Source: Takakia lepidozioides
Lineage: Eukaryota; Plantae; Bryophyta
NCBI GenBank assembly: GCA_030704615.1
Contig: CM060734.1
Span: forward strand, 60,326,001 to 60,390,000
Reading direction: 5' to 3'
Length of the DNA: 64,000 nt
Notes under the pieces: model-generated
What the model was told of the DNA's origin: nothing
Databases searched by the model: none
What the model saw: the letters and a program-made list of their open reading frames with translations, nothing else
In this document: positions 1 through 64,000 of the stretch, one piece after another
Layout of the letters: each line of letters opens with the position of its first letter
Position numbering within the stretch: the first letter of the stretch is position 1
Position numbers and translations under genes: made by a program

Positions 1-528
1 TGCAATCACCGCATTCTCCTCCTCTCCTGACGGTACAAAGGCCTCTACCCAGGCTTGTTGCACTCGTCTATCAACAGCCCGCTGCAAATCCTTGCTCGTA
101 CCCCACAATGGAGTGTGAGCAACCATGGCAGGCAACTCCGCCGTACCATGCATGTCATCCTGCTCTGTTGGAGGTGGCACATCCTCTGCATGGGCATTGC
201 CCTCCAGCAACTCTCCAGGCCAATTAACTGCAGCTGTGAAGGCGGCTAGTGTTGGCATCTTGCCCCGCTGGGCAGCAGCAACACCCCCAATGAATGTCAC
301 AGGGAGCTGTACATGACGACTATCCCCTGACTGCCATCCAGGCCTGTAGGATGCTGACTCCTCCCAAAAATCCAGGGTGAAGCCCATGGGATATAACACT
401 GCCCCACCAACGAGGACATCGTAAGAGACCGCATCTGTCACGATGGCCTTGGCTCGCATCACTGAGCCATCTATATGATGATCTGGCTGTAGTCTAATGG
501 CCAACTCACGCCGTGTCATGCCCTGAGC

Positions 529-1800
529 CTACTCTGATCCTCCCAGAGATGTCTGTATGTGGAAAGGACAAGGCTCCATATCCGCCTCCATGAGGCCCAA
601 ACCTGCAATAGCAGCTCTGCCCAACATCAGTGGCTGAGCTCCCGAGTCCAACAAGACCCGCAGTGGCCGGTACCTCTTGCTTGCCGGTCCACTCAAAGAG
701 AAAATGCTATCCTGGATGTCTAACAAGACAACTCCAGGTGTCACCATGGCGCGCTCAAAGGCTGGCCTAGCTGGCAGCTCCGTCAACCTGGCAGCTGCAA
801 CTTGCCATGGCGCAGCCGTGGCAGTCTTGACCCTCAAATCCGAGAATTCCTCTGCCACTACACCTTCCACCAACTCCGCAGAAGATGAAGTGACCTCCCC
901 ACTCTCGTAGAGTGTTGCTGCTAGTTTGAACACTACAGCTGGTCTTACCCCCGGCGTCGCGATCATGGTTGCCGAGAACAGTGGGGCTTGACACACAGAG
1001 GTGGCTGCCCCCAACAACATACTGGCTGCACTAGCCTTGGCAGCAGGTGTCAGTGCTGCACGTGTAGCTCTCCCCAATGGCACAATAACGGCCTCTGTAT
1101 CTGTCGGGCGAGAACTAGGTGCCATGGATGTCGTCGACACTGTCTCCCCTAAGATAAATGATTGAGGCAACCTAGCCTGACGGCTTGCCTCCCCACGTTG
1201 TGAATCTAACTCCACCTCTGCACCTCGTGGCTCAGGAACTCGTGCTGCTCCTCGAGTGACGGCTGCAGCAGACTCCACCTGCACTAGTGGTAGTGCTGCC
1301 CCACACATAAATCCCATGCCTCCCATGTCTCCTCCGTCAAGATGACGCTGCTGAGGAGGAACAGGAGGTGGACCCTTAGGTCTTGGAGCTGGTACCACCT
1401 GAGCTGTGGCCATGGTAGCAAGCCTTTGCTCTAGTTGCTGAAGCCAGTTGGCCATGCCTTGGTCAACGCCCTGACCTCCATGTCCTTGGTCATACTGTGC
1501 TTGCCCTCATCCTACACCTAGTGCCTGACCACCTCGTCCTCTCTGAGGTGCTCCAGCTCGCCCTCGGCCACCATTGTTCCCTTGGAACTGACCTTGCCGC
1601 AACTCAGGGTGCAAGTCATAACATTGGGCATCTCCATGCCCATACTTGTCACAATGCCCACACTGCAACTGTGCAGGCTGTGCTTGTGCCGGCCTTTTGC
1701 CACTCTCTAGGCAATCTTTCTTGATATGGGGTCCTCCACATGTCCAACATATCATCCTTGGTTGTTGTTGGCTTGCAAAAGATGCTACTGGCCTCTGCAC
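529..1800 (-). pseudogene. gag C-terminus (two zinc knuckles) and aspartic protease of copy A, with in-frame stops
   Basis: CWTCGGPHIKKDC, CGHCDKYGHGDAQC, VLLDSGAQPL. TAG at 529 where copy B has CAG. Confidence 0.85.
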
Positions 1801-1969
1801 CTGAGGTCGAGGTTTACTATTTCATGAGCGCATGAGCGCATGAGCCCATGAGCCTATGAGCTCATGAGCGGACATCCGCGGAATTGGAATTTTCCTGCCT
1901 TTATTGACGGTGTTATGTCCTCTTACCTCGGTAATAGGGTCTGTTTCTCCTGGTCCTGGATGCGGAATG

Positions 1970-9005: not shown

Positions 9006-9242
9006 GCCCAGAATTCAGTTTTTCTATGACCTGGCCTAGCGGTCCATGAGCCTGGGCTCCAAGTCATGAGCGTACACTGGTACTCATGAGCGGAGTGCTT
9101 CCAGCATGAGCGCGGAAATCTTCGATTTTTGATTATTTTATAGTTTTGGGCCTGAAAAAAATCTGCCGAAATTCGAAGTGTGTTACTTTGCGGCTCATAG
9201 GTGAGCCATGCCCGCTCATGAGCTCATGGAATAGCAACCCCC

Positions 9243-10332
9243 ACCTGAGGTCCCCTGTAAGCTCCATGGAATTTGGGTTGGAAAACCTTGCCCCCTTGAC
9301 CACGCTGTTGGGCAGTCTTTTGTGCCTGTGGGCTGGCAGCTGCGCCTCGTGCAGGCATGTCCTTGCCAAATCCAATGGTAACAACTCGCTCTTCCACCAT
9401 GTTGAGCTCAATCCGCTCAGCCAGCAGAAACACATCTGCTAATGTGGGTTGGGCTGCTTGTAACAGGTTTGCATCCTGCACCCTTCTCCTGAGCTCCTTG
9501 TCCAAAATTCCATACCAGAACTGGATTGCCTGAGCTTCAGTAACCCCTTGGGTCACACTTATCAAGCGCCTCATACGAGTGTAGGCCTCTCGCTAGCTCT
9601 CACTGGATTTGCGCTGGAAGTCTTGCAAACTTCGCAGCTTCTCTATCCGTACACCTTGGTAGTTCCTCCGCAACTCCTGGAAGAACTCCACCACCGGGCT
9701 GAATCTAGGCACATGTGTTGTAGTCGTGGCAGGAGGAGTAGTAGCACCTTCTGCAAAAGTACCGGCACTACTTGTTCCACTACTAGTGCTGGCTGTGGGA
9801 GGTATTGGTGGTGATGCCGCTACTGGTCGAGTTGTTCCTCGAGTAATGGAGATGTAGTCAGGTGACCAATATATCCTCCACTCCTCAATCTCTGCTTATG
9901 TCCTCACCTGAACTCATGGTAATCGTCTATAGGCGGGCCTTCCAAATGCTGGAACAATCCCTTCCACGCCATGAATATAGTGAACAGTTGTGGATTGTGC
10001 ATCTGCTGCAAATCACACCAGCTGTTGAACTCCTGGATAAAGTCATCCAGCTCGATTGTGCCCACAGCTCCAGAGTACCTACGAGGCCCCTTAGTAGCTC
10101 CATACATCTCCTCCATGTCGTCCCACAATAATGGCAAAGAAAACCGCACACCTGTTGATGAAGCCTCCGGGTCTGTGTCAGACTCTACAGTAGTTGAGGG
10201 TGGAAGTGGAGGTGGTATGAACCGAATACCTCGTCTTATGAACCCACTCTCACTATTACTGCTTGTAGCCGTACTCCCCTCAGAACCCTTGGGTAACTCC
10301 GTGATGACACTTACAACATGCACCTCCCCCAT
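9243..10332 (-). pseudogene. gag N-terminal/capsid region of copy A
   Basis: RRYSGAVGTIELDDFIQEFNSWC... and QAIQFWYGILDKELRRRV resemble retrotransposon gag. Joins 1800 in frame across the MULE. Confidence 0.75.

Positions 10333-11846: not shown

Positions 11847-11881
<35 letters not shown>
11847..11881. repeat. poly(T) tract, 35 nt
   Basis: Directly visible. Confidence 0.95.
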
Positions 11882-13576: not shown

Positions 13577-13926
13577 TGATTGAAAACTAAAATCACATTG
13601 TTGACACAGAAACACTCAATACAACACAATCACTCATTAAAATAGTAGTCGAGCCAGGGGCACCCCAAGCTATAGGGACTCCACCCCACAACATCATATT
13701 CTCCCTTCATAAATACACTCAGATTCTAAGCAGTGAAGGAGTTCGGTCGTGCAGGCTCAACTCGAGAGAGATGAGCCGCACGACTGACGCGCTCGTGAGG
13801 ATAAGATGGTTCAGGTGTCAAACTAAACTTGACACCTGACTTAACACTTGAACTAAATCCAAGTGTTAAATACAAATAACTAGATTTATTCTAGTTAGTT
13901 TCACACTGTGTTTATTTAACTTGACA
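13577..13926 (-). repeat. LTR segment homologous to the central part of the copy-B LTR (possible 5' terminus of copy A)
   Basis: Aligns end to end with 58200-58548 in the same orientation. Begins TGTCAAG on the minus strand. Confidence 0.8.
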
Positions 13927-35330: not shown

Positions 35331-35727
35331 ATTTACTTCTCTCACCTGCTCATCAGCTGTGATTGTCCAACCAGTCACCACTTCATCCTTTAAGCTCACA
35401 GTGGCTGGTTCTTCTAGGATTTCTATCTCTCCCTCCTTTTCTTCATAGAAATGTGGTGGGTAACTGCTGGTTTCCTCTTCAATTGGTGTTGCCGACACTA
35501 CACCACAGCAGATACCTCTTAAACAACTTAGGCTTTCCAGCCGCATCTCCGCAACCTGCTCCCACTCTGGGTGTGCAGCAAATAGGGTAGCTTCCTGCTC
35601 CTCATCCAGTCCTCCTCTCCAGTCATACTCTCTGACTCCTCGAGGTCTTCTTGTAGCAGGTAATCTACTAGATTTCTTTGTGGTAATTTGTATCTCGTGC
35701 ATCCCATTATGCACAGTTAGTAACTGA

Positions 35728-38586: not shown

Positions 38587-39282
38587 TTAATGTGGCAATA
38601 ACCAAAACTCTCTTCTGTAATATCTCTCGTATATGCCTGGGTTTCTTTCAAGCTTCAATGCACCCTTGGCTATACTTGAAGTCTCCGTTACCATATAACC
38701 ATATGGCAAACAAGTCTGAAAAGCTGTTCTTGGTGTGAGTTTGATCCACAAAATATCCTTTGGAATCCAATTCTTTACCAGTACAAGCTCTTCATGCATA
38801 TGAGTATAAACATTCACCTTTCTTTCTTCCCAGCCTTCAAACTCTACTCGTTTAATGGATAGCAACGCTATCACATAAACCAATGTTGGTAACCAACGTG
38901 CTCTTCCTCTACAGGCTACCTTATAAATCTTTATCACTCCTTTCTCCAGACCCCATTCTGGATCGGCATCATGCACTCGTTTAAGAATATTTTCTTTACA
39001 TCCGTCTGGCAATTCCAAGAACCTTTGAAAGAATCGTTTGGACAATCTTTCTTCCTTCGTTCCACAGGGAATTTGATTCACTTCAAATTCTTTAATGGTC
39101 CAACCACCATGATCCCACCAGATGCCTGTCACATCTGGTTGTTCATGTCTCAGGTCCCCAGTATGGTCGCCAAATGTCGCGCGGCTTTTACTCACCCATC
39201 CCTTCGCTATCCGAGGCGGAAACTCCAAGATAGAAGAGTTGGAAATCTCTAAGTACTCAGCCCGCGCAGAACAATCAGTCAT
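38587..39282 (-). CDS. G2 pre-gag ORF0 (231 aa, starts in the LTR, spans the PBS)
   Basis: Open frame with a protein-level homologue at 22189-22428. Confidence 0.55.
   Translation of the reverse strand: MTDCSARAEYLEISNSSILEFPPRIAKGWVSKSRATFGDHTGDLRHEQPDVTGIWWDHGGWTIKEFEVNQIPCGTKEERLSKRFFQRFLELPDGCKENILKRVHDADPEWGLEKGVIKIYKVACRGRARWLPTLVYVIALLSIKRVEFEGWEERKVNVYTHMHEELVLVKNWIPKDILWIKLTPRTAFQTCLPYGYMVTETSSIAKGALKLERNPGIYERYYRREFWLLPH
39155..39172 (-). promoter_or_regulatory. Primer-binding site, probably tRNA-Arg type
   Basis: TGGCGACCATACTGGGGA 2 nt downstream of the LTR end. Resembles Ogre/Tat Arg PBS. Confidence 0.7.
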
Positions 39283-40273
39283 GACCTACAGCTAGTGTAT
39301 CATGGGGGTGTTTCCTATGCGTTTCCCTTTCCGCATTCATCTTAGCTACCTTTGGCATTGATAATTAAGTATCAGTTTGCTTCATCAATCTATCGGTTTC
39401 CTTCACTCATCCTTCAATCCACAGCTTCTCTCAGATCTCTCTACACAGTGTGATTGTATCGTATAAGTATCAGATTATGATTTATCAGGTATCAGGCCGA
39501 AGCCATTATGTCTCTAATCTGCTCTCCAATATCACTACAGCTTTGCATATAACAAGCATCTACTAATCCTCTTTTCTCCTTCATCGTGCTCTCCATCTCT
39601 TGCCTCCCGATCTCCGCTCCTGCCTGACTCCGAAGTCCTCCTCCGAATAATGATCATCCCCCTTCATTCCCCGTTTCTCCCTTTATCCTCCTATCCGCGG
39701 TTCTAACCGTTTCCCTCTCTAACCGTCGTCTGTGAACTAACATGCTCCCTTCACAGGTGTTGTTCCCCACAGTCGTTCCCTGTCCTACTCTTCGTTCCCT
39801 ATTATCGTGACAGCTCTGTCAAGCGGTGACTGGCTGTGTTTGGCTGTGTCGGGCTGGACTGGCTGTGTGGCTGTGCCGGGCTGTGACTGGCTGTGTGGGC
39901 TGTGCCGGGCTGTGACTGGCTGTGTGGGCTGTGTCTGCTGTGACGACTGTGACGGGCTGTGTGGGCTGTGTGTCTGCTGTGTAACGACTGTGACGGGCTG
40001 TGTTGGCTGTGTGGGGCTGTGACGACTGTGACGGCTGTGTGGGCTGTGTGGGCTGTGTGGTCTGTGACGACTTTGACGGGCTGTGTGTCGGCTGTGTGGC
40101 CTGTGTGGGCTGTGACGACTGTGACGGGCTCTGTCGGCTGTGACGACTGTGTAACCCCCCTCTACAGTGCGCTGCTGTCACCCCTAAGGCTCCTGTTGGT
40201 CTCAGTCTGTGCAAAATTAAGGGTACCCTACAGATCCCGTATAAGTGTCTAAGTCCCCTACAGTCCTCTAACA
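39175..40273 (-). repeat. G2 LTR (5' LTR, diverged U3)
   Basis: Reverse-complement homologue of 29257-30259. Confidence 0.92.
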
Positions 40274-43200
40274 GTGCATTACAAAGTCCAAAGGGCATGA
40301 CTTTGTATGCATAAGCCCCCCAGTCTGTGATGAAAGCTGTTTTCCCTTGGTCTTCTTCGCCACTTGCACTTGATTATAACCACTGAAGCCATCCATGAAT
40401 GAGTACATCTCATGGCCTGCCACAGTGTCTAATACTGCTTCTGTGAATGGCAAAGGGAAAGGATCTTTCTTCGTACAAGCATTCAGCTTCTTATAGTTCA
40501 CACATACTCTCAATTTGCCATTCTTCTTGGGAACTATAACAATGGGTGACAACCACGTTGTATACTCTATTGGGTATATAAACTTAGCCTCAGCCAACTT
40601 CTTTATCTCTTCTCCAACCTTCTGTGCGTAGTTGGGATTCATTCTATACCTCGCCTGCTTGATTGGTACTGACCCTGGTTCCAGTTCAATCTTATGCTGA
40701 CAGACTTCAGGTGGTATCCCTTTTAGATCCTCATAGCTCCAAGCAAATACATCTCTGTATTTGATGAACAAGCTTTTAGCTTCTTCGAAGAATTCCGGCT
40801 CCAAATCAGTCCTACTTTCACCATCCTCGGTTCCTCTTTAGTTCCCACATTTAGTTCTCTCACCTGCTCATCAGCTGTGATTGTCCAACCAGTCACCACT
40901 TCATCCTGTAAGCTCACAGTGGCTGGTTCTTCTAGGATTTCTATTTCTCCTTCTCTTTCTTCATAGAAATGTGATGGGTAATTGCTGGTTTCTTCTTCAG
41001 TTGGTGTGGCTGTCACTACACCACAGCAGATACCTCTCAAACAACTTAGGCTTTCCAGCCGCATCTCTGCAACCTGCTCCACACTTGGGTGTGCAGCAAA
41101 TAGGGTAGCTTCCTGCTCCTCATCCAGTCCTCCTCTCCAGTCATACTCTCTGACTCCTCGGGGTCTTCTTGTAGCGGTAATCTACTAGATTTCTTTGTGG
41201 TAATTTGTATCTCGTGTATCCCATTATGCACGGTTAGTAACTGAGAATTCCAGTCATGGAATACCCTGGCCTGTTTCAACCACGGACGTCCCAATAATAA
41301 GGAGTAAGCCTCCATGACTTCATCCATTTTTAATACAGTTACTGTGATCATAAAGATCATTTTCTGTATCTGTATCTTAACTCCTCTTATTAATCCCAAT
41401 GGCTGCACACTTCTTTGATCTGCCATTGTTACTGTAAATGGGGCTGGTTTCATGTTACTTAGACCAAGCTTCTTCCTTAATTGGTCTGTCATGATATTTA
41501 CTCAGAACCACCATCTATCAGTACATCAGTTAGTTCTGTACTTCCATTCTCCAAATGGATTACTGGCATAACTTTCTTTTGCAAACCTGGTCTTAGTCCA
41601 CTCACAAACCAAGTCTTCTGTAACCCGGGCGCTGGTACTGCAGCCAGCTTTTTCATCATCAATTCCATCTTCTCCATATACTCTTCAACAGTTTCATGCT
41701 TCTTCTGCTTCAGCTGTTGTAAACTTCCATACACTTCATCCTCAGTTTTACTTGTCCGAACCTATTTCGAAATGCTGTATTCAAAGCCATTCCAGGTTAG
41801 GAATGATATCAGGGAATCTTGCATACCATTCACTTGCTTTCTTGATAAGTGAAAAGGAAACAGTCTCATCTTGGCATCATCGCCATTCCATTGTTCCCAC
41901 TATACACATGTGCTCAAATTGGCTAATGTGTACATCGGGATCCCTTTCCTGAATAATTGGAAAGGGTGGTTTTGCCCGTGTTGGTTTGTAACGCCATCTG
42001 TGGCCCTACTTCTGCCCACTGACAGGTGCTGGCACCTTGCTGTGCTGGTCCTTCTGGACCTGTTGTTGTGGGATCTTCCACCAAGTGGTGGCCCTTGAGC
42101 ACTCCTGCTTCGGGCCCAACGATATTCACAGTATTCCCAGATTCAGTTGCACTACTTTCCACAATCCCTGTCCCCCAGAGCCAGATCCAGGCAGCCCGCC
42201 TGATCCCCCGAGCCGACACCTTCGTTGGGCCTGTGATCCAAGTGCTCCACTTGATCCAGGTCCAACGGGTTGGGATATCCTGGTGGAGTCTCAACCTCAG
42301 CTGTTGGGTCTACTTCTTCATATTTCCTCTTCTAATTTCTTCTCTCTGTTTTCATCCTCCAAGTTCTGCCCTTGGGTTCTTCTTCACTCATGTAACTCAA
42401 CTGTAATGGTGTTGGAGAGAGTTGAACTCTCCGTTGGCTTGCCACATCCTCTTCTCCTTCTTCACCCTCTGCTTCAGAAACTGGAGTTCCTGCTTTTGGT
42501 GTTCCATCTGCCAACTCTTATCAAGATTTATGTCAAGTCTTTTATCCAAGATGTACCTCAGATCTTTAACCTCGTGATTGATCTTCTTCATGTACCAATT
42601 CCCTAATTTTCTGCAAAGAAACAGAAGGAGTGGCATCCAACTCAGTAGTTCTTCTGGTATAGGTGATGCACTCTTGATCTCAATGGTGTGAGAGGTCCAG
42701 ATGATTCCCCTATGTCTATTCCTCTCCCAAAGATATGGATAATTAGCTTTCAGATAGCTTTATTTTTGCTGAATATCTCTGTCGTCTAGCTTCTCTTTCA
42801 TCAATATGTCCCATGTCTTTCATTTCTTTTAATGTGGCAATAACCAAACTCTCTTTTGTAATATCTCTCGTATATGCCTGGGTTTCTTTCAAGCTTCAAT
42901 GCAACCATGGCTATACTTGAAGTCTCGTTACCAAATAAACCATATGGCAAACAAGTCTGAAAAGCTGTTCTTGCGTGTGAGTTTGATCCACAAAATATCC
43001 TTTGGAATCCAATTCTTTACCAGTACAAGCTCTTCATGCATATGAGTATAAACATTCACACTTTCTTTTCCAGCCTTCAAACTCTACTCGTTTTTAATGG
43101 ATAAACAATGCTATCACATAAACCAATGTTGGTAACCAACGTGCTCTTCCTCTACAGGCTACCTGATAAATCTTTATCAATCCTTTCTCCAGACCCCATT

Positions 43201-44433
43201 CTGGATCGGAATCATGCACTCGTTTAAGAATATTTTCTTTACAACCGTCTGGCAATTCCAAGAACCTTTGAAGAAAATTGTTTGGACAATCTTTCTTTCC
43301 TTCGTTCCACAGGGAATTTGATTCACTTCAAATTATTTAATGGTCCAACCACCATGATCCCACCAGATGCCTGTCACATCTGGTTGTTCATGTCTCAGTT
43401 CCCCCAGTGGTCGCCAAATGTCGCGCGGCTTTTACTCACCCATCCCTTCGCTATTCGAGGCGGAAACTCCAGATAGAAGAGTTGGAAACTCTAAGTACTA
43501 GCCGCGACAGAACAATCAGTCATGACCTACAGCTAGTGTATCATGGGGGTGTTCCTATTTGTTTCCCTTTGGTATTCATGTTAGCTATCTTACCATTGAT
43601 AATTAAGTATCAGTTTGCTTTATCAATCATTGGATTCCATCAGCTCATCCCTCATTTCACGCTTCACTCAGATCTCTCTAAACTGTGATTGTATCGTAAA
43701 AGTATCGATTATGATTTATCAGGTATCAGGTATCAGGTATCTTCACTTCGGTCCTCATCTCTACCCGATCCCCTCTCCTCTATCACCAAGAAGTCCCCTC
43801 GAAAATCCCCCGTTCAATTCCCCGTTTCTCCCTTTATCTTCCTATCCGCGGTTCTAACCGTTTCCCTTACTCTAACGTCGTCTGTGAACTAACATGTTCC
43901 TTTGCAGGTGTTGTTTCCCCACAGTCGTTCCCTGTCATACTCTTCGTCCCTATGATCGTGCAGCTGTGTCAAGCTGGACTGGCTGTGTGAAACTGTGACG
44001 GGCTGTGTGTTGTGCTGTGCGAATGGTGTGAGACTGTGTTTGGCCTGTGTGGGGCTGGAATGGCTGTTGGCTGTGCCCGGGCTGTGAAGGCTGTGTCGGT
44101 TGTGTTTCGATGATTGTGACGAACTGTGAGGGCTGGTGGGGGATGTGACGATGTGACGGCTGCTGTGTTGGCTGTGTCGGCTGTGAAGGGCTGTGGTGCT
44201 GTGACGACTGTGACGGGGCTGTGTCGGCTGTGACAGTCGAAGTGACGACTGTGACGGGCTGTGTTGGCTGTGTTGGCGGTGTGTGACGTGTGACGACTGT
44301 GTTGGGCTGTGTAACCCCCCTCTACAATGCGCTGCTGTCACCCCTAAGGTTCCTCTGATCTCAGTCTGTGCAAAAATTAAGGTTACCCTACAGATCCCGT
44401 ATAAGTGTCTAAGTCCCCGACAGTCCTCTAACA
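40274..44433 (-). mobile_element. G2 copy (LTR 43419-44433, ORF0, gag/PR with ~1.2-kb deletion, 5' part of RT)
   Basis: Homologous to 34755-40273. GLQKKV|MPVI fusion marks the deletion. Many indels. Confidence 0.88.
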
Positions 44434-46638
44434 ATACCATAAACTAATGGAATGGTGTATACTTAGTGGGTGACTTTTATGAAGTCCGTATGACCACAAA
44501 GCTGTCAGCAGCTTTGTATCCCAATCCGTTCTGTTGGCATTGGACTATCTTAGCCAAGATAGTACATTATATTTGTTGGTAGCCTATGCCTGCCATTACC
44601 CTGTAGGTAATTGTTGTACTCTTTCTACGCACAATCATAAATTCTTTAGTCAACAACTCACAATGGTCTCATTCATGAAGTGACTTCCTTGATCACTGAT
44701 AAATTTAAGGGACAGCCAAATCGTGTTGTAAGATGTTCTAGTACAGGGAAACCTTGTGGGACTTGGCGGTGTGTTGCTCCTCAAAGCTTTAGCTTCCACC
44801 CACTTTGTAGTATAATCAAGTGGCGGTAATTATGTACTGTTTTCGTGTATCTTGGATAGTGGGTTAATTGGTCCAACAAAGTCTAGTCCCCATTTCTGAA
44901 ATGGTTCCGTAGGCATTGTGATGCAAGTATCCTTCCAGATCTCTGCAAAGGTCTTAGCCTCTGACTTCATTCACACTTATGACAATACTCGTGACATCTT
45001 TGAACAAAAGTTAGGCCACCAGTATCCTGCTAGTAGTAGTATCTTCTACTGGTAGTCTCTTCTCCAAACGACCTCCAGGCCACTTCTTTTTATGAACTTC
45101 CGCCAAAACTTATTTACTTCATGTGGTTACAAGCATCGTTTTAGTTACTTCAATCAGGTCCTAACTTATACATTCTGCTTCCTACCATGTATAAGGTAAA
45201 GCTTGATAGCGATTCTCTTCCTTGCTCCTTACCAAACTAGGTGGGACACTGACCTGAGCCAATGGTAGTATCTGATTGGCCACTTGCCACCAATCTAACC
45301 ATCATCTGCACTTCCCTGCACCCTCCACTGCAAAGAGACTCGATCTGGTAATGATCATCTATTCCTGTGGCGGTTCTCCTGTTGACAAATCGTGAACAAA
45401 TGAGTCCGCCACAAGAGACAGGTCTCCCGGCTTGTAAACAACCTCAAACTTCAACGCGTGCAAGATTATCAACCATCTTGCTATTCTTACGCTTTTATCA
45501 GCGGTTTGTTTACCGGTATATCAGAGCCCGGTTGATCCACATAGAACATAAAAAACTTCTTGCCCAACAGGTAATGCCTGAATTTTTTCACTGCATAGAT
45601 CATTGCCAAGCTTCTCTTTCCGTTGTGCTATATTCCTTCCTCGCACTGTTCATCAAACCGGCTAGCATATAGGACACAACGTGAATCTATATGTCCCTGT
45701 AACATTTTGGGCTAAACACCGCTCCCAACGCTTCTCCTGATGCATCGCAGTGAACATGAATACTACATGCCAGTGGGGTTAATCAGCACAGGTGTATTTG
45801 TTACTGACAGTGTAAGTTCCTCAAATGCCTGTGACATTCAGCTGTCCAGGCAAACACTGCATTTTCTTCTCAGTAGTTTGCTCAATGGTGCTGCTATTTG
45901 TGCATACCTTTTGACAATCTCCTGTAATAACTGGTTTGCCCAAGAATCTCCGTGAGACTTTTAACATTCACTGGTGGGTGAGAGGCTTTAATGGACTCTG
46001 TCTTTCTGGGATCCACAAGGGAGTCCATTCTTACACACAATGTGTCCCAGAAGCACCCCTGAGTTCACACAGAAAGAAACGTCTCTGGATTCAGCCCAGA
46101 CCTCTCATCCTGCATGCTGGCCAAACGGAACGCAAATTTATGAAGTGCTCATTCTTAGAGTTGACACACTGAATCATCCAAGAAACCTGATGTGAAAATC
46201 ATCCAGAAATCATGAAAAGCTTCACTTATCAATCTCTGAAAGGTCGCTGTTGCATTACAAAGTCCAAAGGGCATGAGTTGTCCATGCATAAGCCCCCCAG
46301 TCTGTGAATGAAAGCTGTTTTTCCCTTGGTCTTCTTCTGCCACTTGCACTTGATTATAACCACTGAAAGCCATCCCATGAATATGAGTACATCTCATGGA
46401 CTTGCCACAGTGTCTAATACTGCTTCTGTGAATGGCAAAGGGAAAGGATCTTTCTTCGTACAAGCATTCAGCTTCTTATAGTTAACCCATACTTTAGTTT
46501 TGCCATTTCTTCTGGGAACTATAACAATGGTGGTGCAACAATGTATACTCTATTGGGTATATAAACTTAGCCTCAGCCAACTCTTGATCTCTTCTCCCAA
46601 CCTTCTGTGCTATGTTGGGAATTCATTCTATACCTCGC
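44434..46638 (-). pseudogene. G2 pol fragment, indel-rich, ends at the gap
   Basis: Colinear with about 32948-35136. Confidence 0.85.
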
Positions 46639-52094: not shown

Positions 52095-55028
52095 TCACCA
52101 GTAATCCCCACAAGAACACACCCCATCTTTGAAGTGGTGAAAGCGACTAGCATCCCGTACAACAATTGCTCGGCCAACAATCTTTGAGATGAACTTGGTG
52201 GCAGTGTGGCAGTCACCACACACTCGAAGATTCTTGATGATACGGAGAGGGGTCCCAGGGGCTGTGCTGATCAGCCCAAAACCAATGGCCAGCTTCTCAC
52301 TGTGATGGGAAAGAGAAAATTCCTTTTGCTCCTCCCCCACATCATGCAATACAAAGCGCGTGTCAGGCACATACCCTTCCTCCTTCATCTGCCTAGACAA
52401 TCTTCTCAGCTCAGCATGGATTTCCTCAATTTTTGGATGCCATTTATCATCTACAACAAAGGAGTGCACCCTGTTGCTGACCTCAATGCAACAGCGACCT
52501 GGCTCCTTTCTAACCCCTCTGACCTTCATCATTTTTCTCACCTTTGCAGTGTCGTCCCACCTGCCAGCTGCGGCATAGATGTTTGATAGCAACACATAAG
52601 TCGCAGCATCCTGTTCATCCCACTTGAGAATAGATGTTGCTGCACGTTCAGCCATCTTCACATTGCAATGAATTCTGCAGGCACCAAGCAAGGGCTTCCA
52701 CACCGCAGCATTTGATTTCATTGACATTTTGTTAATGAACTCCTCTGCCTCATCCAATCGCCCCGCACGACCAAGAAGGTCCACCATGCAGGCAAAGTGC
52801 TCGACTGCTGGAGTGATGCCATGATCTCGACTCAGGTAGTCAAAGTAGTATCTGCCTTCATCCACTAGGCCAGCATGGCTACATGCAGAGAGAACACACA
52901 AAAAGGTAATGCTGTCCAGCTTCAAGCCATGACCTTCCATCTGTTCCAATAGTTGCAGGGCCTCCATATCACAACCATGCTGGGCATATCCTGCGATCAT
53001 CGCATTCCAGGACACCAAATTTCGTTCACCCATATTGTCGAACACTCCCTTTGCATCCTTGATGCTCCCGCCTTTGGCATACATGTCCACCAGGGTATTG
53101 TTCAGAATGACATCTGGTACAATTCCCGCTTTGATGATTTCACCATGGACCTCTTTGCCCATTTCCAGGGCTGCCAGGCTTGCACATGCATTGCAAACGC
53201 AAACAAACGTGACCCGGTCCGGCTTCATCCCTTCCCGCATCATTTGCTCATAGGTCTCCAAAGCCTCCATGCCACACCCATGCTTCGCATATCCTGCAAT
53301 CATCGCATTCCATGACACCACATTTCGTTCGGCCATATTGTCAAATACTCCCTTTGCATCCTCGATGCTCCCTCCTTTCGCGTACATATCCACGAGGGCA
53401 GTGTTCAGAATGACATCTGGTACAATTTGTGCTTTGATGATGTCACCATGGACCTCTTTGCCTTTTCCCAGGGCTGCGAGACTTGCACAGGCGTTGCAAA
53501 TGCATATGAACGTGACCTGGTTGGGCTTCACCCCTTCCTGCATCATCTGCTTATAGGTCTCAAAAGCCTCCATCCCACACCCATGCTGGGTATATCCTGC
53601 AATCATTGCGGTCCAGGACACAACATCTCGTTCAGCCATATTGTCGAACACTACCTTTGCATCCTCAATGCTGCCACATTGAGCATACATTTTCATCAAG
53701 GCAGTGTTCAGTATGACATCTGGTACAATTCCTGCCTTGATGATGTCATTATGGACCTCTTTGCCCTTTTCCAGGGATGCCAGGCTCGCACATGCATTGC
53801 AAACGCAAACATACGTGATGTGATTGGGCTTCACCCCTTCCCCCATCATTTGCTCATAGGTCTCCAAAGCCTTCATCCCCCACCCATGGTGCATATATCC
53901 TGCAATCATAGCACTCCAGGACACCACATTTTGTTCAACCATACTGTGGAACACTTTCTTTGCATCTTCAATGCTACCTCCTTTGGCATACATATCCACC
54001 AGGGCATTGTTCAGAATGACATCTGGTACAATTCCAGCTTTGATAATGTCACCATGGACCTCTTTGCCCTTTTCCAGAGCTGCCAGGCTTGCACACACAT
54101 TGCAAATGCAAACAAACGTGACCCGGTTGGCCTTCACCCCTTCCTGCATCATTTGCTCATAGGTATCCAAAGCCTCCATCCCGCACCCATGCTGGGCATA
54201 TCCTGTGATCATCACATTCCACGACACCACATCTCGTTCAGCCATATTGTTGAACACTCTCTTTGCATCCTCAATGCTGCCGCATTTGGCATACATGTCC
54301 ACCAGTGTGTTGATCAGAATGACATCAGGTGCAAGTCCTGCTTTGATGATGTCACCATGGACCTCTCTGCCCTTTTCCAGGGCTTCCTGACTTGCACACG
54401 CATTGCAAACGCAAACAAACGTGATGTGGTTGGGCTTCACCCCTTCCTGCATCATTTGCTCATATGTCTCTAAAGCATTCTTACCACACCCATGCTTGAT
54501 AAATCCTGTTATCATTATATTCCACGTGATCACACCTCGTTTACACATTTTGTTGAACACTTCGTGTGCATCCATGATGCTCCCGCATTTAACATACATG
54601 TTGACCAGGGTGTTGTGTAGAAAAATGTTTGGCTTGAGTTCTGTTTGGATCATGTGAAGGTGCACCTGCTTTCCGAGCTCCAGGTCTTTCATCTTGATGC
54701 ACCTACGCAAGAGACAGACATAAGTATCTGAATCTGCTGAAATGCCTGCTTGGTTCAGAATCTGTAGAGCCTCTTTTAGCTGCCCAGCCTCACATAGTGT
54801 TCTCACATGCCCAGGAGTGCCAGAAGAGGTCTTGTGGACTGCCTCCCTTGGTCCTCTTTTGGAAGCTGTGTTCATGGTGGAGGTGCCTAATTTTATCGAC
54901 TGTGCTGCTGCTACTGCTTCCACTTGACCATGTACCCATGCAGGTTTCTTGTAGCTAAACATCCACAGGGACTCATAGGTAAGCTTGTGCTTGAAATCCG
55001 GCCCTCTCACTGGAATCTGGACCCACAC
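52095..55028 (-). CDS. PLS-class PPR protein with E1/E2 and DYW cytidine deaminase (organellar C-to-U editing factor type); true 5' end uncertain
   Basis: Six L-S-P triplets plus L2-S2, PG box, HSEKLA...CGDCH, terminal DYW. Confidence 0.95.
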   Translation of the reverse strand: MWVQIPVRGPDFKHKLTYESLWMFSYKKPAWVHGQVEAVAAAQSIKLGTSTMNTASKRGPREAVHKTSSGTPGHVRTLCEAGQLKEALQILNQAGISADSDTYVCLLRRCIKMKDLELGKQVHLHMIQTELKPNIFLHNTLVNMYVKCGSIMDAHEVFNKMCKRGVITWNIMITGFIKHGCGKNALETYEQMMQEGVKPNHITFVCVCNACASQEALEKGREVHGDIIKAGLAPDVILINTLVDMYAKCGSIEDAKRVFNNMAERDVVSWNVMITGYAQHGCGMEALDTYEQMMQEGVKANRVTFVCICNVCASLAALEKGKEVHGDIIKAGIVPDVILNNALVDMYAKGGSIEDAKKVFHSMVEQNVVSWSAMIAGYMHHGWGMKALETYEQMMGEGVKPNHITYVCVCNACASLASLEKGKEVHNDIIKAGIVPDVILNTALMKMYAQCGSIEDAKVVFDNMAERDVVSWTAMIAGYTQHGCGMEAFETYKQMMQEGVKPNQVTFICICNACASLAALGKGKEVHGDIIKAQIVPDVILNTALVDMYAKGGSIEDAKGVFDNMAERNVVSWNAMIAGYAKHGCGMEALETYEQMMREGMKPDRVTFVCVCNACASLAALEMGKEVHGEIIKAGIVPDVILNNTLVDMYAKGGSIKDAKGVFDNMGERNLVSWNAMIAGYAQHGCDMEALQLLEQMEGHGLKLDSITFLCVLSACSHAGLVDEGRYYFDYLSRDHGITPAVEHFACMVDLLGRAGRLDEAEEFINKMSMKSNAAVWKPLLGACRIHCNVKMAERAATSILKWDEQDAATYVLLSNIYAAAGRWDDTAKVRKMMKVRGVRKEPGRCCIEVSNRVHSFVVDDKWHPKIEEIHAELRRLSRQMKEEGYVPDTRFVLHDVGEEQKEFSLSHHSEKLAIGFGLISTAPGTPLRIIKNLRVCGDCHTATKFISKIVGRAIVVRDASRFHHFKDGVCSCGDYW

Positions 55029-55257
55029 TCCATCCCTGCTCCTTCAGCTGTCCCTGCCTTGGTACCAATAATGCTCCCTTGCTGCTATGAACAAGCTTTT
55101 CTAGCAAACACCCAACCCTACAAATCACACACTAGTTCCTATTCAGAATCGCTAACGAGACTAAAGAACGAACTGGGGAGAGAGAGAGATGACACTTTCC
55201 AAGAAAGCTTTATGCATCTTGTTGCCTGCTTCTCTCTTAGATTTGACAGGCATTCAC

Positions 55258-58113: not shown

Positions 58114-58635
58114 TGTCGTGCGCATACATATCGCTACACAACTACATCGCTGTCCAAACCACACCACACATATATGCACAATAAAGTAGTCTGCCACAAT
58201 GATAGAAAATCTTCGAACACACTGTTTACACAAAACATGAAAACCAAACCATCACTCTTAGAAATAGTAGTCGAGCCAGGGGCACCCCAAGCTATGGGGA
58301 CTCCACCCCACAACAACCTACACTCCCATCATGAGTACACTCAGATCTAAACGCATGCAGGAGCTCGGTCGCGCAGGCTCAACTCGAGAAAGATGAGCCG
58401 CGCGACTGCCGCTCTCGTGAAGATAAGACGGACCAGGTGTCAAACTAAACTTGACACCTGATTTAACACTTGACCTAAATCCAAGTGTTAAATACAAATA
58501 ACTAGTTTTATTCTAGCTGTTTTCACACTGTGCTTATTTAACTTGACAGCTGTCGTGCGCATACATATCGCTACACAACTACATCGCTGTCCAAACCACA
58601 CCACACATATATGCACAATAAAGTAGTCTGCCACA
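58114..58635 (-). repeat. 3' LTR of DNMT-gypsy copy B (522 bp, with identical 85-bp terminal direct repeats)
   Basis: TG...CA ends. PPT-like AGGGGGGCGAT adjacent at 58636-58646. 58114-58198 equals 58551-58635. Confidence 0.8.
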
Positions 58636-58895
58636 ATCGCCCCCCTAGCTGGTGGATAGGTCCCTCTACCTCCAGATAGCTACAAGATGTAATAGCCACA
58701 GCCGTACTAAGTCCTCTATCACTGTCCCTATTGTACTCAAACTCTATAGACCAAGAGGCCGGGTACAAGAGTAGCCCCATCGTTAGTCGCCATCTTGCAA
58801 TCTGTGAACTTGAGCCAGGACCGCGTGTGTTCAAGGTCTCCTAGTAGCTGGGCCTTGCGTTGCTTGTTAGCCTCCCATGGTTGTATCCACTCCCA

Positions 58896-59380
58896 CTATC
58901 CAATGCATTGTGGACATAACCAATCCCCATCTGGAACCATCTCAAGAGGTGGAGTCAAGCACCCCATATACCAACCTCTAGAGCATCGATCACACACCAG
59001 CATGGTGGCTGCCCCTTTAGCAGACCCACACAACATGCACCTCAAACCTGCAGATACCACTGCCAGGTTTGGGTCAATCCTGCCATCGACATTCGGAAGG
59101 TGACATGGCGCACAATTACGCACACGGTCCTTCCAAGTTATGCCATCCCGACCCTCCAAGACCAAGACGCCTGAGGGCAAGACCTCTCGAACCCTCAAAA
59201 TAACACGTCCTGCAGTCACATCCAGGGTCGTAGGAGCAGTCTGCTGCAGATAGACATAGTCACCAGGGTTGAATCTCCGAACCCCAGGACGATAGCCCCC
59301 ACCACGTATGGTAGCATACCTCAACGTATCACGGTGTTGTGCAATGGCAAGGTTCTCGAAAGCCATGGGCATGAATCTCT
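58896..59380 (-). CDS. Integrase C-terminus with PHD finger (frameshifted from pol)
   Basis: CMLCGSAKGAATMLVCDRCSRGWYMGCLTPPLEMVPDGDWLCPQC (C4HC3 pattern, with Tyr at the His position in this copy). Confidence 0.88.
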
Positions 59381-61872
59381 TTGAACAACTCTGCACGCTG
59401 CTCACATGCACGTGCCCATACGTCCGGATCGTCAAGGTTAAGAACTGTAGCAGCTTCTCTGCGAATGGATGTAGGCAAATCCGGCTCTCGGCCAAAGAGA
59501 AGAAAGTATGGTGAGAAGGAGGCAAGTGATGCTTGCTTGCTGAACCTGTAGCCCATGGCTAACCAGGGTAACTGAAGGTCCCAATCTCCTAGGTGTCCCT
59601 TCTGCAAGCCATACTTGCGCAAACCCCTCTTTACTGTCTGAACAACTCTCTCTGCCAAGCCATCGGCCTCAGGATGATCCCGAGAAGTGGTGCGGTGGTC
59701 TATCAAGGCCTTGTCACACAAAGCCTGAAACTCCCCCAAGAACTCTCTCCCTTGGTCCGTGAGTACCTCAGCTGGAGCACCGAATCGGCTAAGCACACAA
59801 TCCAATAATGCATACGCAGCTCCCTCACTAGCCTTATCAGGCAATGGAACCAATTCAATCCACTTGGAGAAGTGCTCCACCATCACCAACACGTACTTGT
59901 TGTGGCGCATGGTCAGTGGCAACGGCCCTGCGAAGTCAAGACTCCACCTGTAGCCCAATCCCATGATCGGAAGAGGGTGCAATTGTGGAGTAGGGGCGTT
60001 GAATGAAGCACGCACCCTGTCACACACCATGCACCTAGCCACAAATTGTTGCACCTCTGTGTGCATACCACGCCACCAATACTGCCCCTGCAGTAGACTA
60101 TGAGTGCGTCGCACCCCAAAATGCCCCAACTCCTCATGGGCATGCCGCACTAACCGTGCCCGCTGTGTTGGGTGAGGCACAATCCTCACTCGACCATCCT
60201 CCCACACTCGGAGCAGGTGTGTCCCCTCCCACCTGAACCTCTTGGCTCGTTGTAGGATCCGATCCCTCTCCTTGGCAGTCATAATGGCTGCCGTGTCTCC
60301 ACTGCGGAGGTAGTCCAACACAACTGAATCCTCATGTATATCTTTGGCGCCACCCTGCTCATTGCTGGCCTCAGGGTCCTCAGACACTTGATCTACAGTC
60401 ATCCCTGTTGTAGGTCCAACCTGGCCTTCCGCTGCCAAGATACACAGAAATGCAGATGCATGCCATCCGGGCACCATCTCCTCGTCTGTCTCACCATGCC
60501 ACCGAGCTCCAGTGTCATCCTGCTGGCTCGTGCATGGATTGCGACTCAACCCATCTGCATTTCGATTGACCAAACCCGGTCGATGCACCACCTGAAAGTC
60601 ATACTCTTGAAGGATGAGTGCCCACCGTGCAAGCTTCCCCGTAAGCTTGTCTGACTCCATCAACCACTTGAGTGGTTGGTGATCCTTGACAAGGGTGAAG
60701 AGATTGCCGTATAGATAGCACCTGAAGTGTGCCACGGCCCACACTGCAGCTAAGCATTCTCCCTCATATGAGCTATACTTAGACTCTGCAGCATTGTTCG
60801 AGCGGCTAGCATAAGCCACTACGAACTCTCTTCCCTCATCATCCACCTGTGTGAGCACCGCTCCAAGCCCTAGCATGCTCCAATCTGTATGCAGCTGAAA
60901 AGGACGCCCCCTGATAGGTCGTCTCAAGATGGGCGCCGAGGTCAACCTCGCCTTGAGCTCTTGAAAAGCTTGTTCTTGCTCATCTTCCCACTGCCACTCC
61001 TGGTCCACCTTGGTCAGCTTGGTTAGAGCCTTTGCAATGGCACTAAATCCCTTAACAAACCGTCTGTAATAGTTTGCTAACCCCATGAAAGCTCGAACTC
61101 GGCTCACATCCGTGGGGCGTGGAACCTGTGCAATGGACTCTACCTTAGTCTGCTGTACCCCCAATCCTCCAGGATATATCATGTGACCCAGATACTCAAT
61201 CTGGTTGTGGAAAAACTTGCACTTGCCCGGATGTAACTTCAATCCTTGCGTCCTCAAGCGCTCAAATACCCCCTGAAGGTGTCTCTCATGCTCCTCCACC
61301 GTAGCACTAAAGATGATGATGTCATCTATGTAGCACCGAGCAAACTCCACCCCTGCTAGAATCCTGTCCATGACTCTTTGAAACTCAGCGGGAGCGTTTT
61401 TAAGCCCAAATGGTAAGAACCGCCACTGGTATAGGCAATCCTTCCCGTGCTCATTGATCCCCCAGAATGCCGTCTTTTGCTTATCCGCCTCCTTGATCGG
61501 CAACTGGTGATATCCGGATCGTAAATCCAACGTGCTAAAGACCTTGGAATGCCCAATGGCATCAAAGATCTCCTCTGGTGTTGGCATGGCATACCTATCG
61601 GACTTGGTCTGACGATTTACAGGCCGGTAATCACCGCACATACGTCTCTCCGTCCAATTGCCATAGACATCCTTCTTAGCTGGCATCACTGTGGCTGAAG
61701 CATACTCTCCACCAGAGAGCTCCACCAAACCTGCCTCCCAGAGATCTTGAGTCCTCATCTGAATCAAAGACCTCTCCATGTCACTGTATCTATAGGGTCT
61801 CCGAAAGATTGGCGTGTCAGTGGCCAACTCAATACGGATCTCTTGACCCTTCAGTGCTCCCAAGTCCTTCAA
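59329..61872 (-). CDS. pol: pol: RT, RNase H, integrase
   Basis: LDLRSGYHQ, LPFGLKNAP, CYIDD, LHTDWS, HEELGH..CMVC, WSLDFAGP, TDQGREF, LAERVV. Confidence 0.95.
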   Translation of the reverse strand: MKDLGALKGQEIRIELATDTPIFRRPYRYSDMERSLIQMRTQDLWEAGLVELSGGEYASATVMPAKKDVYGNWTERRMCGDYRPVNRQTKSDRYAMPTPEEIFDAIGHSKVFSTLDLRSGYHQLPIKEADKQKTAFWGINEHGKDCLYQWRFLPFGLKNAPAEFQRVMDRILAGVEFARCYIDDIIIFSATVEEHERHLQGVFERLRTQGLKLHPGKCKFFHNQIEYLGHMIYPGGLGVQQTKVESIAQVPRPTDVSRVRAFMGLANYYRRFVKGFSAIAKALTKLTKVDQEWQWEDEQEQAFQELKARLTSAPILRRPIRGRPFQLHTDWSMLGLGAVLTQVDDEGREFVVAYASRSNNAAESKYSSYEGECLAAVWAVAHFRCYLYGNLFTLVKDHQPLKWLMESDKLTGKLARWALILQEYDFQVVHRPGLVNRNADGLSRNPCTSQQDDTGARWHGETDEEMVPGWHASAFLCILAAEGQVGPTTGMTVDQVSEDPEASNEQGGAKDIHEDSVVLDYLRSGDTAAIMTAKERDRILQRAKRFRWEGTHLLRVWEDGRVRIVPHPTQRARLVRHAHEELGHFGVRRTHSLLQGQYWWRGMHTEVQQFVARCMVCDRVRASFNAPTPQLHPLPIMGLGYRWSLDFAGPLPLTMRHNKYVLVMVEHFSKWIELVPLPDKASEGAAYALLDCVLSRFGAPAEVLTDQGREFLGEFQALCDKALIDHRTTSRDHPEADGLAERVVQTVKRGLRKYGLQKGHLGDWDLQLPWLAMGYRFSKQASLASFSPYFLLFGREPDLPTSIRREAATVLNLDDPDVWARACEQRAELFKEIHAHGFREPCHCTTP

Positions 61873-62389
61873 ACTGAAGGCAAAGCAATTCCTGTAAGCC
61901 CTCAGGAACCGCCGTATACGTCGTCTCTCTCCTCCGGTGACAATGGGTCCAATGTCAGGCTCCCAATTGTCCTCCGTAACTGCAACCTTAAGTCCAGTGG
62001 GCTTAGAGGTAGAGGACGCGTCCCGTGGTTGCTACGCTGCAACCTCTTGAGCAGTACCCCCTTCCTGCTCAGTCAATGACAAGGCCTCATCCTGCCCCAT
62101 CATCTCATCATTGAGAACCTCCTCATCCCGAGAAGAATCCCCAACCTCATCCATCACAGCTGCCTTCGCTGCCAACTCCCTCTGAACCTCGAGCACCTTC
62201 GTACATCACCTGAGTTATCAATTGTCTAGTCGTCCAAAAAATAGATAAGTTCTGTCGAACCCACGTGTGCCATGGATGTCTACACCTCGTGGTCCTCACC
62301 GGCTCGCCCCCACTTGCTGCCTGTACCGTCTCGGTAGGCAGAGAGACTGTCAAGGGAAGTGCACTCCGCACTCTACGTTGCTCAGCCAT

Positions 62390-63345
62390 AGCCAAGCTGA
62401 CAATCCAGGTCAAGCAATTGAGATCCATTGCTTGCCCCAACACCTGACGACGTGATGCCTCAGAAAGAGAAGGCACCGCCGTGGTCCCAGTGGAAAACCC
62501 CATAGCCCGCTCTCGCTCGTCGGCATTAGGCTCCACTAACTGCTGCAACTGAGCATCCCACAAGAGGCCAGGTCCACCATCCCGAAAAGCATGGGATCCT
62601 GGGAAGCTGAGCAGTGTAGGTAATGCTGCTCGTGGTTGACCCACCCTGTTGACCACTGCCAAAGGCGAACGGTCATCGTGTCTCACACGTTGAGACTGCC
62701 TTCCTGTGTCCAAAATGCCATCCACGGTGAGGTGTGCTGGCCGCTACACCCCATCAAATGCACGCTTGAGCAGTGCGGGTGGCATCAAGTTAGTCCACCA
62801 TAGTCGTGGACGATGAGCCCGTGACCCCACTGCAGCTGCATCCAGCAATACTGCTGACCCAAGCCACGACCGGACTTGATGCACACTGGCCATCACCCTG
62901 GCCCGAGAATCACCCATCAGTGGTACATTCTCCAAGATGTATGCTGGAGATACAGCTTGATAAAGCTGCAAGCAGTGCAAAATCCGCACCATCTCCCAAA
63001 ACAGACCCGTCCTCGAGTCTCGCAATCCATTGCCATGCCCGGCTGATGAATGCCCTTGGCAGGGCCAACCTGCCACTATCAGATCAATGGAGCCAACCTG
63101 CTCCAAATCTTGCGCCCCCAACAAGGAAATGTCTGCTGGCAAGGCTTGTTGGTATCCACGAACTGCAGACACAGGCAACAAGTCAGGGTACTGCTGTACC
63201 AACTGAGCCACATGGCGCAGTGAGACGCGTCGTGCAGTCTCATCCCTCTCCACATACAGGTAACGCCTTACCCGCACACCTGCCTGTAGCACAGCAGCCA
63301 ATCCGGTGCTGATCCCGCCAAACAAGTCCAGAAGGCAAATGCCTT
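62390..63345 (-). CDS. DNMT3-like cytosine-5 DNA methyltransferase domain within the polyprotein (one in-frame TAG at 62744)
   Basis: Motif I LDLFGGISTG, II YVERD, IV AGWPCQGHS, VI YILENV, VIII AHRPRLWWTNL, IX ERERAMGF, X RRQVLGQAMD. Confidence 0.93.
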
Positions 63346-64000
63346 CATCCGGCCGCTGCCACACAAGAGGTGTGGTGTCCAATGGCGACAACTGAGGTGG
63401 CCCTGGTGCAATCACCGCACTCTCCTCCTCTCCTGACGGTACAAAAGCTTCTACCCAAGCTTGTTGCACCCGTCCATCAGCAGCTTGCTGCAAATCCTTG
63501 CTCGTACCCCACAACGGAGTGTGAGCAACCATGGCAAGCAACTCCGCCGTACCATGCATGTCATCCTGCTCTACTGGAGGTGGCACATCCTCTGCATGGG
63601 CATTGCCTTCCAGCAACTCTCCAGGCCAACTAACTGCAGCTGTGAAGGCGGCTAGTGTTGGCATCTTGCCCCGCTGGGCAGCTGCAATACCCCCAATGAA
63701 TGTCACAGGGAGCTGTGCACGGCGACCATCCCCTGACTGCCATCCAGGCCTGTAGGATGCTGACTCCTCCCAAAAATCCAGGGTGAAGCCCATGGGGTAT
63801 AACACTGCCCCACCAACGAGGACATCGTAAGAGACCGCGTCTGTCACAATGGCCTTGGCTCGCATCACTGAGCCATCTACAGGATGATCCGGCTGCAGTC
63901 TAATAGCCAACTGATGTCGTGTCATGCCACGAGCCTGCTCTGATCCTCCCAGAGATGTCTGTATCTGGAAAGGACAAGGCTCCATATCCGCCTCCATGAG

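Follow-up and report, generated by a model that had tools for sequence, protein, structure and literature searches.

A stretch of 64,000 nucleotides from Takakia lepidozioides (contig CM060734.1; "the window" is this whole stretch) carries on its minus strand a dead copy of a Ty3/gypsy retrotransposon, copy B, in which a DNMT3-type cytosine methyltransferase (DNMT) lies between the protease (PR) and the reverse transcriptase (RT). The element has the order gag-protease-DNMT-RT-RNaseH-integrase-PHD, and an in-frame stop that separates DNMT from RT is conserved in related loci. We slightly favour a model of the whole in which the conserved UAG leaks, DNMT is packaged and the element cDNA is likely methylated before integration. 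DNA methylation is the plants' main means of transposon silencing; here this tool is carried by a transposon itself and, by our estimates, has been selected as strongly as RT. A second, partial element in the window is referred to as copy A.

In copy B, a single open frame from 64000 to 62747 on the minus strand encodes the C-terminal half of the protease, a 112-residue linker and methyltransferase motifs I to VIII (LDLFGGISTG; GWPCQ, with its Cys at 63061; ENV at 62932; AHRPRLWWTNL), and motifs IX and X (ERAMGF and LGQAMD) follow in the same frame beyond a TAG at 62746-62744. A preliminary description, made from the sequence alone, had already given this I-to-X order and the protease frame running into the enzyme, leaving the strand unstated. 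The profile scan it suggested recovered DNA_methylase (E 4.7e-13), RVT_1 and rve; RVT_1, RT_RNaseH, Integrase_H2C2 and rve all matched within the open reading frame (ORF) 62031 to 59332, in keeping with its placement of RT, RNase H (RH) and integrase (IN) after the methyltransferase. No Pfam detection of the protease was obtained in the profile search of window ORFs. Three features go beyond that description, namely a C-terminal PHD finger (PF00628, E 1.8e-9, in ORF 59558 to 58899) that occupies the same position among relatives, the conserved stop at 62034-62032, and split terminal repeats. The coding features of copy B are as follows.

63686..64000 (-): C-terminal half of the aspartic protease; open frame, placed by similarity to Marchantia protein P0003, with the N-half and gag past the window edge
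63350..63685 (-): protease-DNMT linker, in frame; the least conserved part, nonsynonymous divergence (dN) 0.56 to relatives
62378..63349 (-): domain of a DNMT3-like cytosine-5 methyltransferase, motifs I-X unpermuted, with a premature TAG at 62746-62744 (PF00145, E 4.7e-13)
62199..62259 (no strand): 61-bp extra stretch that shifts the frame in the DNMT-RT linker, skipped by contigs in 4/4 runs
62026..62034 (-): conserved in-frame stop TAG-CAA-CCA between DNMT and RT (stop 62034-62032), present in 28/28 testable subfamily-1 loci
61177..61647 (-): reverse transcriptase, RVT_1 (PF00078, E 4.7e-32)
60601..60990 (-): RNase H (PF17917 and PF17919, E <= 3e-33)
59671..60171 (-): integrase zinc-binding and core domains (PF17921 and PF00665)
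58905..59039 (-): PHD finger at the Pol C-terminus (PF00628, E 1.8e-9), with a 1-bp frameshift near 59380 in copy B

Judging by its breaks (the premature TAG at 62746-62744, the 61-bp stretch at 62199-62259 and the 1-bp frameshift near 59380), copy B is a dead element, as had been proposed from a stop at 62744 and frameshifts. The 61-bp stretch had no second match anywhere in the window, and both it and the 1-bp difference near 59380 were absent from the contigs of all four runs compared. A contig of a second organism (run X9) covers 58631-63651 unbroken at about 95% identity. In run X1, from which 67,291 contigs were aligned to the window, the summed contig depth was about 10^6 along the element, DNMT included, versus 130-210 in the flank, suggesting many copies, although this depth figure is not a copy number. 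The CpG observed/expected ratio of the element (0.53, versus 0.30-0.63 in other window sequence) was uninformative.

The methyltransferase domain and its conservation

The best match of the domain in the PDB was DNMT3A (E 2e-11 with the single sequence and 2e-21 with a profile), with DNMT3B/C next. Profile scores were far weaker for DRM (E 2e-9) and M.HhaI (E 7e-7), that for M.HaeIII was also far lower, and DNMT2 scored lowest among the cytosine-5 methyltransferases compared (E 0.002-0.1). The predicted structure had a mean confidence (pLDDT) of 96.5, and its top Foldseek matches were DNMT3A/B, with a template modelling (TM) score of about 0.7 across the whole domain. By sequence and predicted fold, the domain is DNMT3-type with unpermuted motifs, and the earlier assignment to DNMT3 holds. 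A DRM origin was considered and is ruled out by the canonical motif order and by a DRM score far weaker than that of DNMT3A. Host DNMT3 proteins (human DNMT3A/B; moss PpDNMT3b in the available part of PMC6453930) are alike in catalytic fold and motif order, whereas the element domain is about 20% identical to them, has neither PWWP/ADD nor the plant accessory domain, and is part of a mobile polyprotein.

Residues were counted in 156 relatives aligned over 250 residues. The Glu of ENV was present in all 156; the catalytic Cys was kept in 152, and so was each of the two Arg of motif VIII. Weighing against an active DNA methyltransferase, 73 of the 156 have WECQ in place of WPCQ at motif IV, and the Klebsormidium nitens enzyme KnitGypsy-Dnmt3, the closest tested one, was inactive in yeast, a result that its authors call inconclusive (PMC5890265, available in part, as are all papers cited here by PMC number). 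The Pro-to-Glu change and the inactive algal enzyme would suit a domain retained to bind nucleic acid or to act on a substrate other than DNA, for example RNA; we consider this quite unlikely, since the catalytic Cys, the Glu and both Arg are nearly invariant, the fold fits DNMT3, and the match to DNMT2 is far weaker.

Relatives formed 262 clusters (50% identity) at E<=1e-30, and those named that carry DNMT come from Marchantia (54-75% identity), Sphagnum fallax, Calypogeia, Scenedesmus and Tetraselmis. For the RT-RH-IN region, the best proteins from Calypogeia and Riccia reached 77-78% identity, and those from Klebsormidium 41-45% over most of the length. Metagenome loci, taken as the best 80 of 220, comprised 34 of subfamily 1 (at least 54% identity), 45 of subfamily 2 (about 40%) and 1 of algal type, and in both subfamilies the domains are arranged as gag-PR-DNMT-RT-RH-IN-PHD as far as the contigs extend. 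In the RT tree, the window copy grouped with Calypogeia, Marchantia and subfamily-1 loci (support 0.98), within a broad clade that includes Klebsormidium (FastTree support 0.957); the DNMT tree broadly mirrors the close groupings of the RT tree. Among 185 DNMT-bearing proteins, RT or RNase H precedes DNMT in 64 (as in Scenedesmus), and DNMT follows PR or precedes RT in 44, which indicates two DNMT positions within one broad RT clade. A search of viral contigs gave only 6 weak matches (30-50% identity), which were not used.

Between the window and subfamily-1 loci, DNMT had a dN of 0.23 and a synonymous divergence (dS) of about 2.6 (19 loci), and RT had 0.20 and 2.8 (15 loci); dN was 0.12 for RNase H, 0.14 for integrase and 0.56 for the linker. 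The resulting DNMT ratio of about 0.09 rests on dS near saturation (proportion of synonymous differences, pS, about 0.72). The ratios among close decayed copies, 0.38-0.41 for DNMT and 0.26-0.34 for RT, weigh against strong constraint; the within-family DNMT ratio is, in our view, inflated by decay, as is that of RT. By these measures DNMT is under purifying selection as strong as that on RT, and the ratio below one anticipated for it was found at both distances. Recent horizontal transfer linking the window host to those of the related loci was rejected because synonymous sites are near saturation.

DNMT is, on these comparisons, a family trait, as the preliminary description had supposed from the protease-to-DNMT linker shared with copy A (positions 1-594; 93.9% identity): it has a fixed position in two subfamilies. 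That description had also named what would tell against it (copies lacking the domain, neutral evolution, or a separate insertion), and none of these was seen in the related loci. The decay of every plant-type copy examined is what one might expect of a passenger, a piece of host gene or a separate insertion captured once and drifting neutrally. Such an origin is hardly credible, given the constant in-frame place of DNMT in two subfamilies that share about 40% identity, a dN/dS near 0.09, 262 clusters at E<=1e-30, and a DNMT tree that broadly follows the close groupings of the RT tree. Separate insertion in particular is rejected by the fixed in-frame position together with purifying selection.

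Several relatives deserve separate mention. Subfamily 2 (L034-L086, with Calypogeia RT relatives) shows the same domain order and split repeats, mostly with WECQ at motif IV. In an algal branch (L063, P0043, P0020, P0035 and others, including Scenedesmus), DNMT follows RNase H and precedes integrase, within intact ORFs of at least 2,000 residues, a layout for which no description was found in the papers compared. P0022, a 1,417-residue metagenome protein whose sequence reads as RT, C5-DNMT, RNase H and then a Dam-like domain (PF00145 and PF05869), would be a DIRS-like element that apparently carries both cytosine and adenine methyltransferases. P0332, which clusters with P0184, is a near relative with RT-RH-IN-PHD; it bears the label of an uncultured cyanobacterium and is probably eukaryotic DNA in a metagenome bin.

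The stop between methyltransferase and reverse transcriptase

In the window, TAG-CAA-CCA at 62034-62026 lies in the RT frame. The stop was scored in the 34 subfamily-1 loci, 6 of which do not reach the site; all 28 testable loci have it (22 TAG, 6 TAA and no sense codon), and CAA comes next in 27 of them. The uninterrupted gag-PR-DNMT-RT ORF for which the preliminary description had proposed a test is therefore not that of subfamily 1; the frame is continuous in subfamily 2 and in several metagenome relatives. The context after the stop is CAA-CCA in the window, L008 and L032, CAA-CTA in L080/L081, and CAA-CCC in most others. The window, L008, L011 and L032 have the run TAGCAACC in common, without a difference, within an otherwise barely alignable linker. 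L008 and L055 hold gag-PR-DNMT in one frame, with one stop apiece, and Marchantia P0003, P0005 and P0006 as well as JGI protein P0008 terminate 73-77 residues past DNMT, at the matching site. Stops upstream of DNMT had no common context in either subfamily.

Because the conserved stop splits DNMT from RT, the methyltransferase would be part of the Gag-PR product and not of Pol, to which it had been assigned before; Gag-PR-DNMT is likely the main translation product. A stop followed by CARYYA is the plant readthrough consensus, with C at +4 as the key base (PMC5397192; also PMC2194720), and in-frame stops are known in murine leukaemia virus (MuLV), SIRE1 and Tca2 (PMC2194720). The TAG-CAA-CCA at the window stop fits this stop-CAR-YYA signal of the tobacco mosaic virus (TMV) type, and we consider it probable, from the codon context, that the stop is passed by readthrough.

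Several observations weigh against this reading. The 28 loci include redundant ones (L026/L027, L029/L031, L043/L044, L080/L081), and many are near-duplicates, so that independent support comes from about four lineages (the window, L008, the L011 group and L032). The conserved domains, too, contain identical runs of at least 8 bases (8 in DNMT, 3 in RT and 5 in RNase H). The largest locus group, with CAA-CCC, matches five of the six consensus positions and then has ATG. A similar-looking stop in Tca2 gave no measurable readthrough in baker's yeast (PMC2194720). Finally, there is no stop at this site in subfamily 2 or in five full-length single-ORF relatives (P0177, P0307, P0308, P0314, P0315), which argues that bulk DNMT is not needed throughout the clade. 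RNA folds 3' of the stop showed no common structure in 3 sequences, compared without a shuffle control.

With the same anatomy, the downstream enzymes might instead be made through splicing, an internal promoter or re-initiation. This would account for the ATG two codons past the stop in the largest locus group, for the separate entries of close relatives as proteins of about 1,030-1,040 residues that start with RT, and for the Marchantia gene models P0009, P0010 and P0015, which fuse DNMT to RT over the stop site. However, that ATG is missing in the window, L008, L080 and L032, which nevertheless retain TAGCAAC, the reading frame is maintained across the stop in intact linkers, and the three Marchantia models are predictions on decayed copies. 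We therefore regard these routes as unlikely and keep readthrough as the preferred explanation; the conserved stop then predicts that the methyltransferase is an abundant component of the particle.

Split termini, copy A and other window sequence

At its 3' end in the window, the element shows, in order, a polypurine-tract-like run, a repeat B (87 bp), GC, a repeat A (about 350 bp) and B again, with B-A-B at 58637-58114. The terminal features are listed here together with those of copy A.

58637..58646 (-): G-rich polypurine-tract-like run directly before B1, recognised from sequence; at the same place in related loci
58551..58637 (-): terminal repeat B1, 87 bp, ending GACA, then GC, then TGTC; 100% identical to 58114-58200
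58201..58548 (-): terminal repeat A2, about 350 bp, starting TGTC; 86% identical to 13577-13926
58114..58200 (-): terminal repeat B2, which closes the element on the right (GACA); the flank starts TATC, the expected 4-bp duplication, and the left end lies outside the window
13577..13926 (-): repeat A1, likely left end of copy A, by similarity to A2
9242..10116 (-): N-terminal part of copy A gag, cut off by nested insertions; tblastn to P0003 residues 1-302, E 9e-86
1..1822 (-): C-terminal part of copy A gag with CCHC knuckle, protease (DSG at 648) and linker to the window edge; dN 0.043 and dS 0.124 to copy B

The repeats are split as A-coding-B-A-B, with termini TGTC...GACA, and contig depth drops to flank level at the bin holding the B2 end. 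Among related loci, A alone stands 5' of the coding region in 33, and a same-strand B never precedes it; the full A-coding-B-A-B form was found in 6 loci and A-coding-B in 9. The shorter forms may be B1-B2 recombinants or products of assembly collapse; L049 and L064 have common flanks and differ in form. In the 14 loci with both ends (L076 being left out as a duplicate of L075), the target-site duplication was a perfect 4 bp in 9, had one mismatch in 1, was lacking in 2 and was eroded in 2. The TGTC/GACA ends and the 4-bp duplications point to insertion by the integrase of an element whose split repeats are DIRS-like.

The preliminary description had called the element a long terminal repeat (LTR) retrotransposon. 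It is of Ty3/gypsy type, with DNMT between protease and RT: the PR-RT-RH-IN order, a DDE integrase, TG...CA ends and, in related loci, a 4-bp duplication are all present. It does not have the canonical LTR structure, as no paired LTRs surround the coding region, with only A at the 5' end and B-A-B or B at the 3' end. A primer-binding site after A1 was not evident by eye, no tRNA library search having been made. Elements with such termini would likely be overlooked or wrongly annotated by tools that rely on paired LTRs, and they may therefore be under-counted in seed-free plant genomes.

Copy A probably starts at 13926. Its LLDSG protease active site at 648 lies upstream of the sequence shared with copy B, window 1-594 being 93.9% identical to 63407-64000. 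Copy A meets the window edge 58 bases short of the start of the DNMT domain, so that the linker is visible and the enzyme is not. Its gag is interrupted at 1823-9240 by an insertion of about 7.4 kb with CATGAG-rich repeats at both borders. Within its 5' region, at about 11800-13400 on the minus strand, lies a fragment with a poly-A run that looks like a retrocopy and whose translation resembles what we take to be ribosomal protein uL22/RPL17.

The window also holds other genes and elements. An intronless PLS-E-DYW pentatricopeptide gene at 52098-55043 (-), with internal repeats of about 303 bp, likely encodes an organellar RNA-editing factor. An L-type lectin receptor kinase gene lies at 17679-19823 (+); among 10 matches, its best was from Diphasiastrum complanatum (71%), versus 41% for Selaginella and 41-45% for Sphagnum. 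These two genes mark the host as a land plant; the kinase, as a single gene, would suggest a clubmoss (Lycopodiaceae), and the ESM Atlas placed it no more narrowly than Streptophyta. A gap of 500 N separates the kinase gene from copy B, with copy A on the kinase side. Unrelated gypsy copies, about 30% identical in Pol, occupy 32578-35349 and about 39000-46600 (-), and no DNMT-like match was seen near them.

Proposed mechanism and known systems

We propose that a long RNA would be translated mostly to Gag-PR-DNMT, with ribosomes stopping at the UAG, and that occasional readthrough would add the RT-RH-IN-PHD extension. The protease would then release the domains inside the particle, with DNMT packaged in bulk; we hold this processing and packaging, predicted from the domain order, to be fairly probable. 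Abundant DNMT could methylate new cDNA before integration, probably at CG by analogy with SymbioDIRS-Dnmt3, and we put the chances of this role at about even. The DNMT3 of that Symbiodinium retrotransposon performed de novo CG methylation in yeast (PMC5890265); the closer Klebsormidium enzyme, as noted above, showed no activity there. A pre-methylated copy would resemble resident heterochromatin, and host MET1 would maintain its methylation. Tethering of integrase to chromatin is the role predicted for the PHD finger, and the internal GACA-GC-TGTC junction is the likely template for rebuilding both integrase ends.

DNMT might instead act once the element has integrated, or in trans, with the insertion site, the promoter of the element or host DNA as its target, serving to limit the element itself or to shape chromatin. 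Production at Gag level would presumably leave ample free enzyme, DNMT adjoins integrase in algal relatives (RT or RNase H comes first in 64 of the 185 DNMT-bearing proteins), and de Mendoza et al. raise both options (PMC5890265). Against this, the catalytic domain has no targeting domain of its own, and fusion to Gag would place it in the particle. We give this alternative only a small share of our confidence and retain methylation of particle cDNA as the preferred role. More tentatively, and with rather less than even confidence, we suggest that a green-lineage-wide clade of split-terminus integrase elements took an active DNMT3 from algae into liverworts, mosses and vascular plants, that the land-plant branch evolved a leaky stop and a Gag-level methyltransferase, with copies inserted pre-methylated, and that, where abundant, such elements may be a source of de novo methylation apart from RNA-directed DNA methylation (RdDM) and host DNMT3.

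The algal hosts lend themselves poorly to experiments. Marchantia polymorpha, a genetic model plant, has close relatives of the element (54-75% identity) in which the role of DNMT can be tested. What purpose DNMTs serve in retrotransposons has been unsettled since 2018, when de Mendoza et al. reported DNMT3 retrotransposons in Klebsormidium and dinoflagellates (PMC5890265); a 2025 survey, in the part available, cites only 'streptophytes and dinoflagellates', from that work (PMC12344493). The available parts of PMC2864245, PMC10952607, PMC6673714, PMC9940879 and PMC6453930 describe no land-plant DNMT element, and no description of a land-plant DNMT retrotransposon family was found in the literature searched, which covered few subscription papers and did not include Repbase. 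Within that scope, the earlier remark that no described land-plant family was known is upheld, and the element does resemble the charophyte one; novelty is reduced by the land-plant relatives already present in public protein sets, where they stand without annotation as DNMT retrotransposons.

For the predicted readthrough stop, the counterparts are TMV, MuLV gag-pol and soybean SIRE1 (PMC2194720, PMC5397192), where an in-frame UAG with CAR-YYA (TMV type) likewise parts an abundant from a rare product; here the stop comes after protease and DNMT, and not after gag or pol. The REXdb clades Phygy, Selgy, Chlamyvir and Tcn1, compared by description, are likewise Ty3/gypsy, occur in algae, mosses and lycophytes, and have 4-5 bp duplications; the words 'methyltransferase' and 'PHD' are absent from the available text of that paper (PMC6317226). 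SymbioDIRS-Dnmt3 of Symbiodinium shares a DNMT3-clade domain in a retroelement and the split-repeat layout, and is the only tested case with de novo CG methylation shown, but it has a tyrosine recombinase where the present element has a DDE integrase and 4-bp duplications (PMC5890265).

Among known elements, KnitGypsy-Dnmt3 of Klebsormidium nitens comes closest. It is likewise gypsy-type and has an intronless DNMT3-like domain of unpermuted motif order within its polyprotein region, the same DIRS-like A-coding-B-A-B repeats (Fig. 4c legend) and purifying selection (PMC5890265); for the window DNMT, the ratio of about 0.09 between lineages lies below a Ka/Ks of 0.2. The available description, compared by text, makes no mention of a PHD finger, target duplication or end sequences (PMC5890265). 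The RTs of Klebsormidium, 41-45% identical, form a subclade of their own inside the broad clade (0.957) of the window element, and their protein records are without DNMT. An ORF shared by DNMT and RT, taken here as a mark of the KnitGypsy-Dnmt3 kind, was seen in subfamily 2, P0177 and P0308; the window subfamily keeps the same frame split by a stop. The window element differs further in its land-plant host and in the conservation of that DNMT-RT stop. It is, on present comparison, a known kind of element, to which a conserved, putatively leaky stop and defined integrase ends are added.

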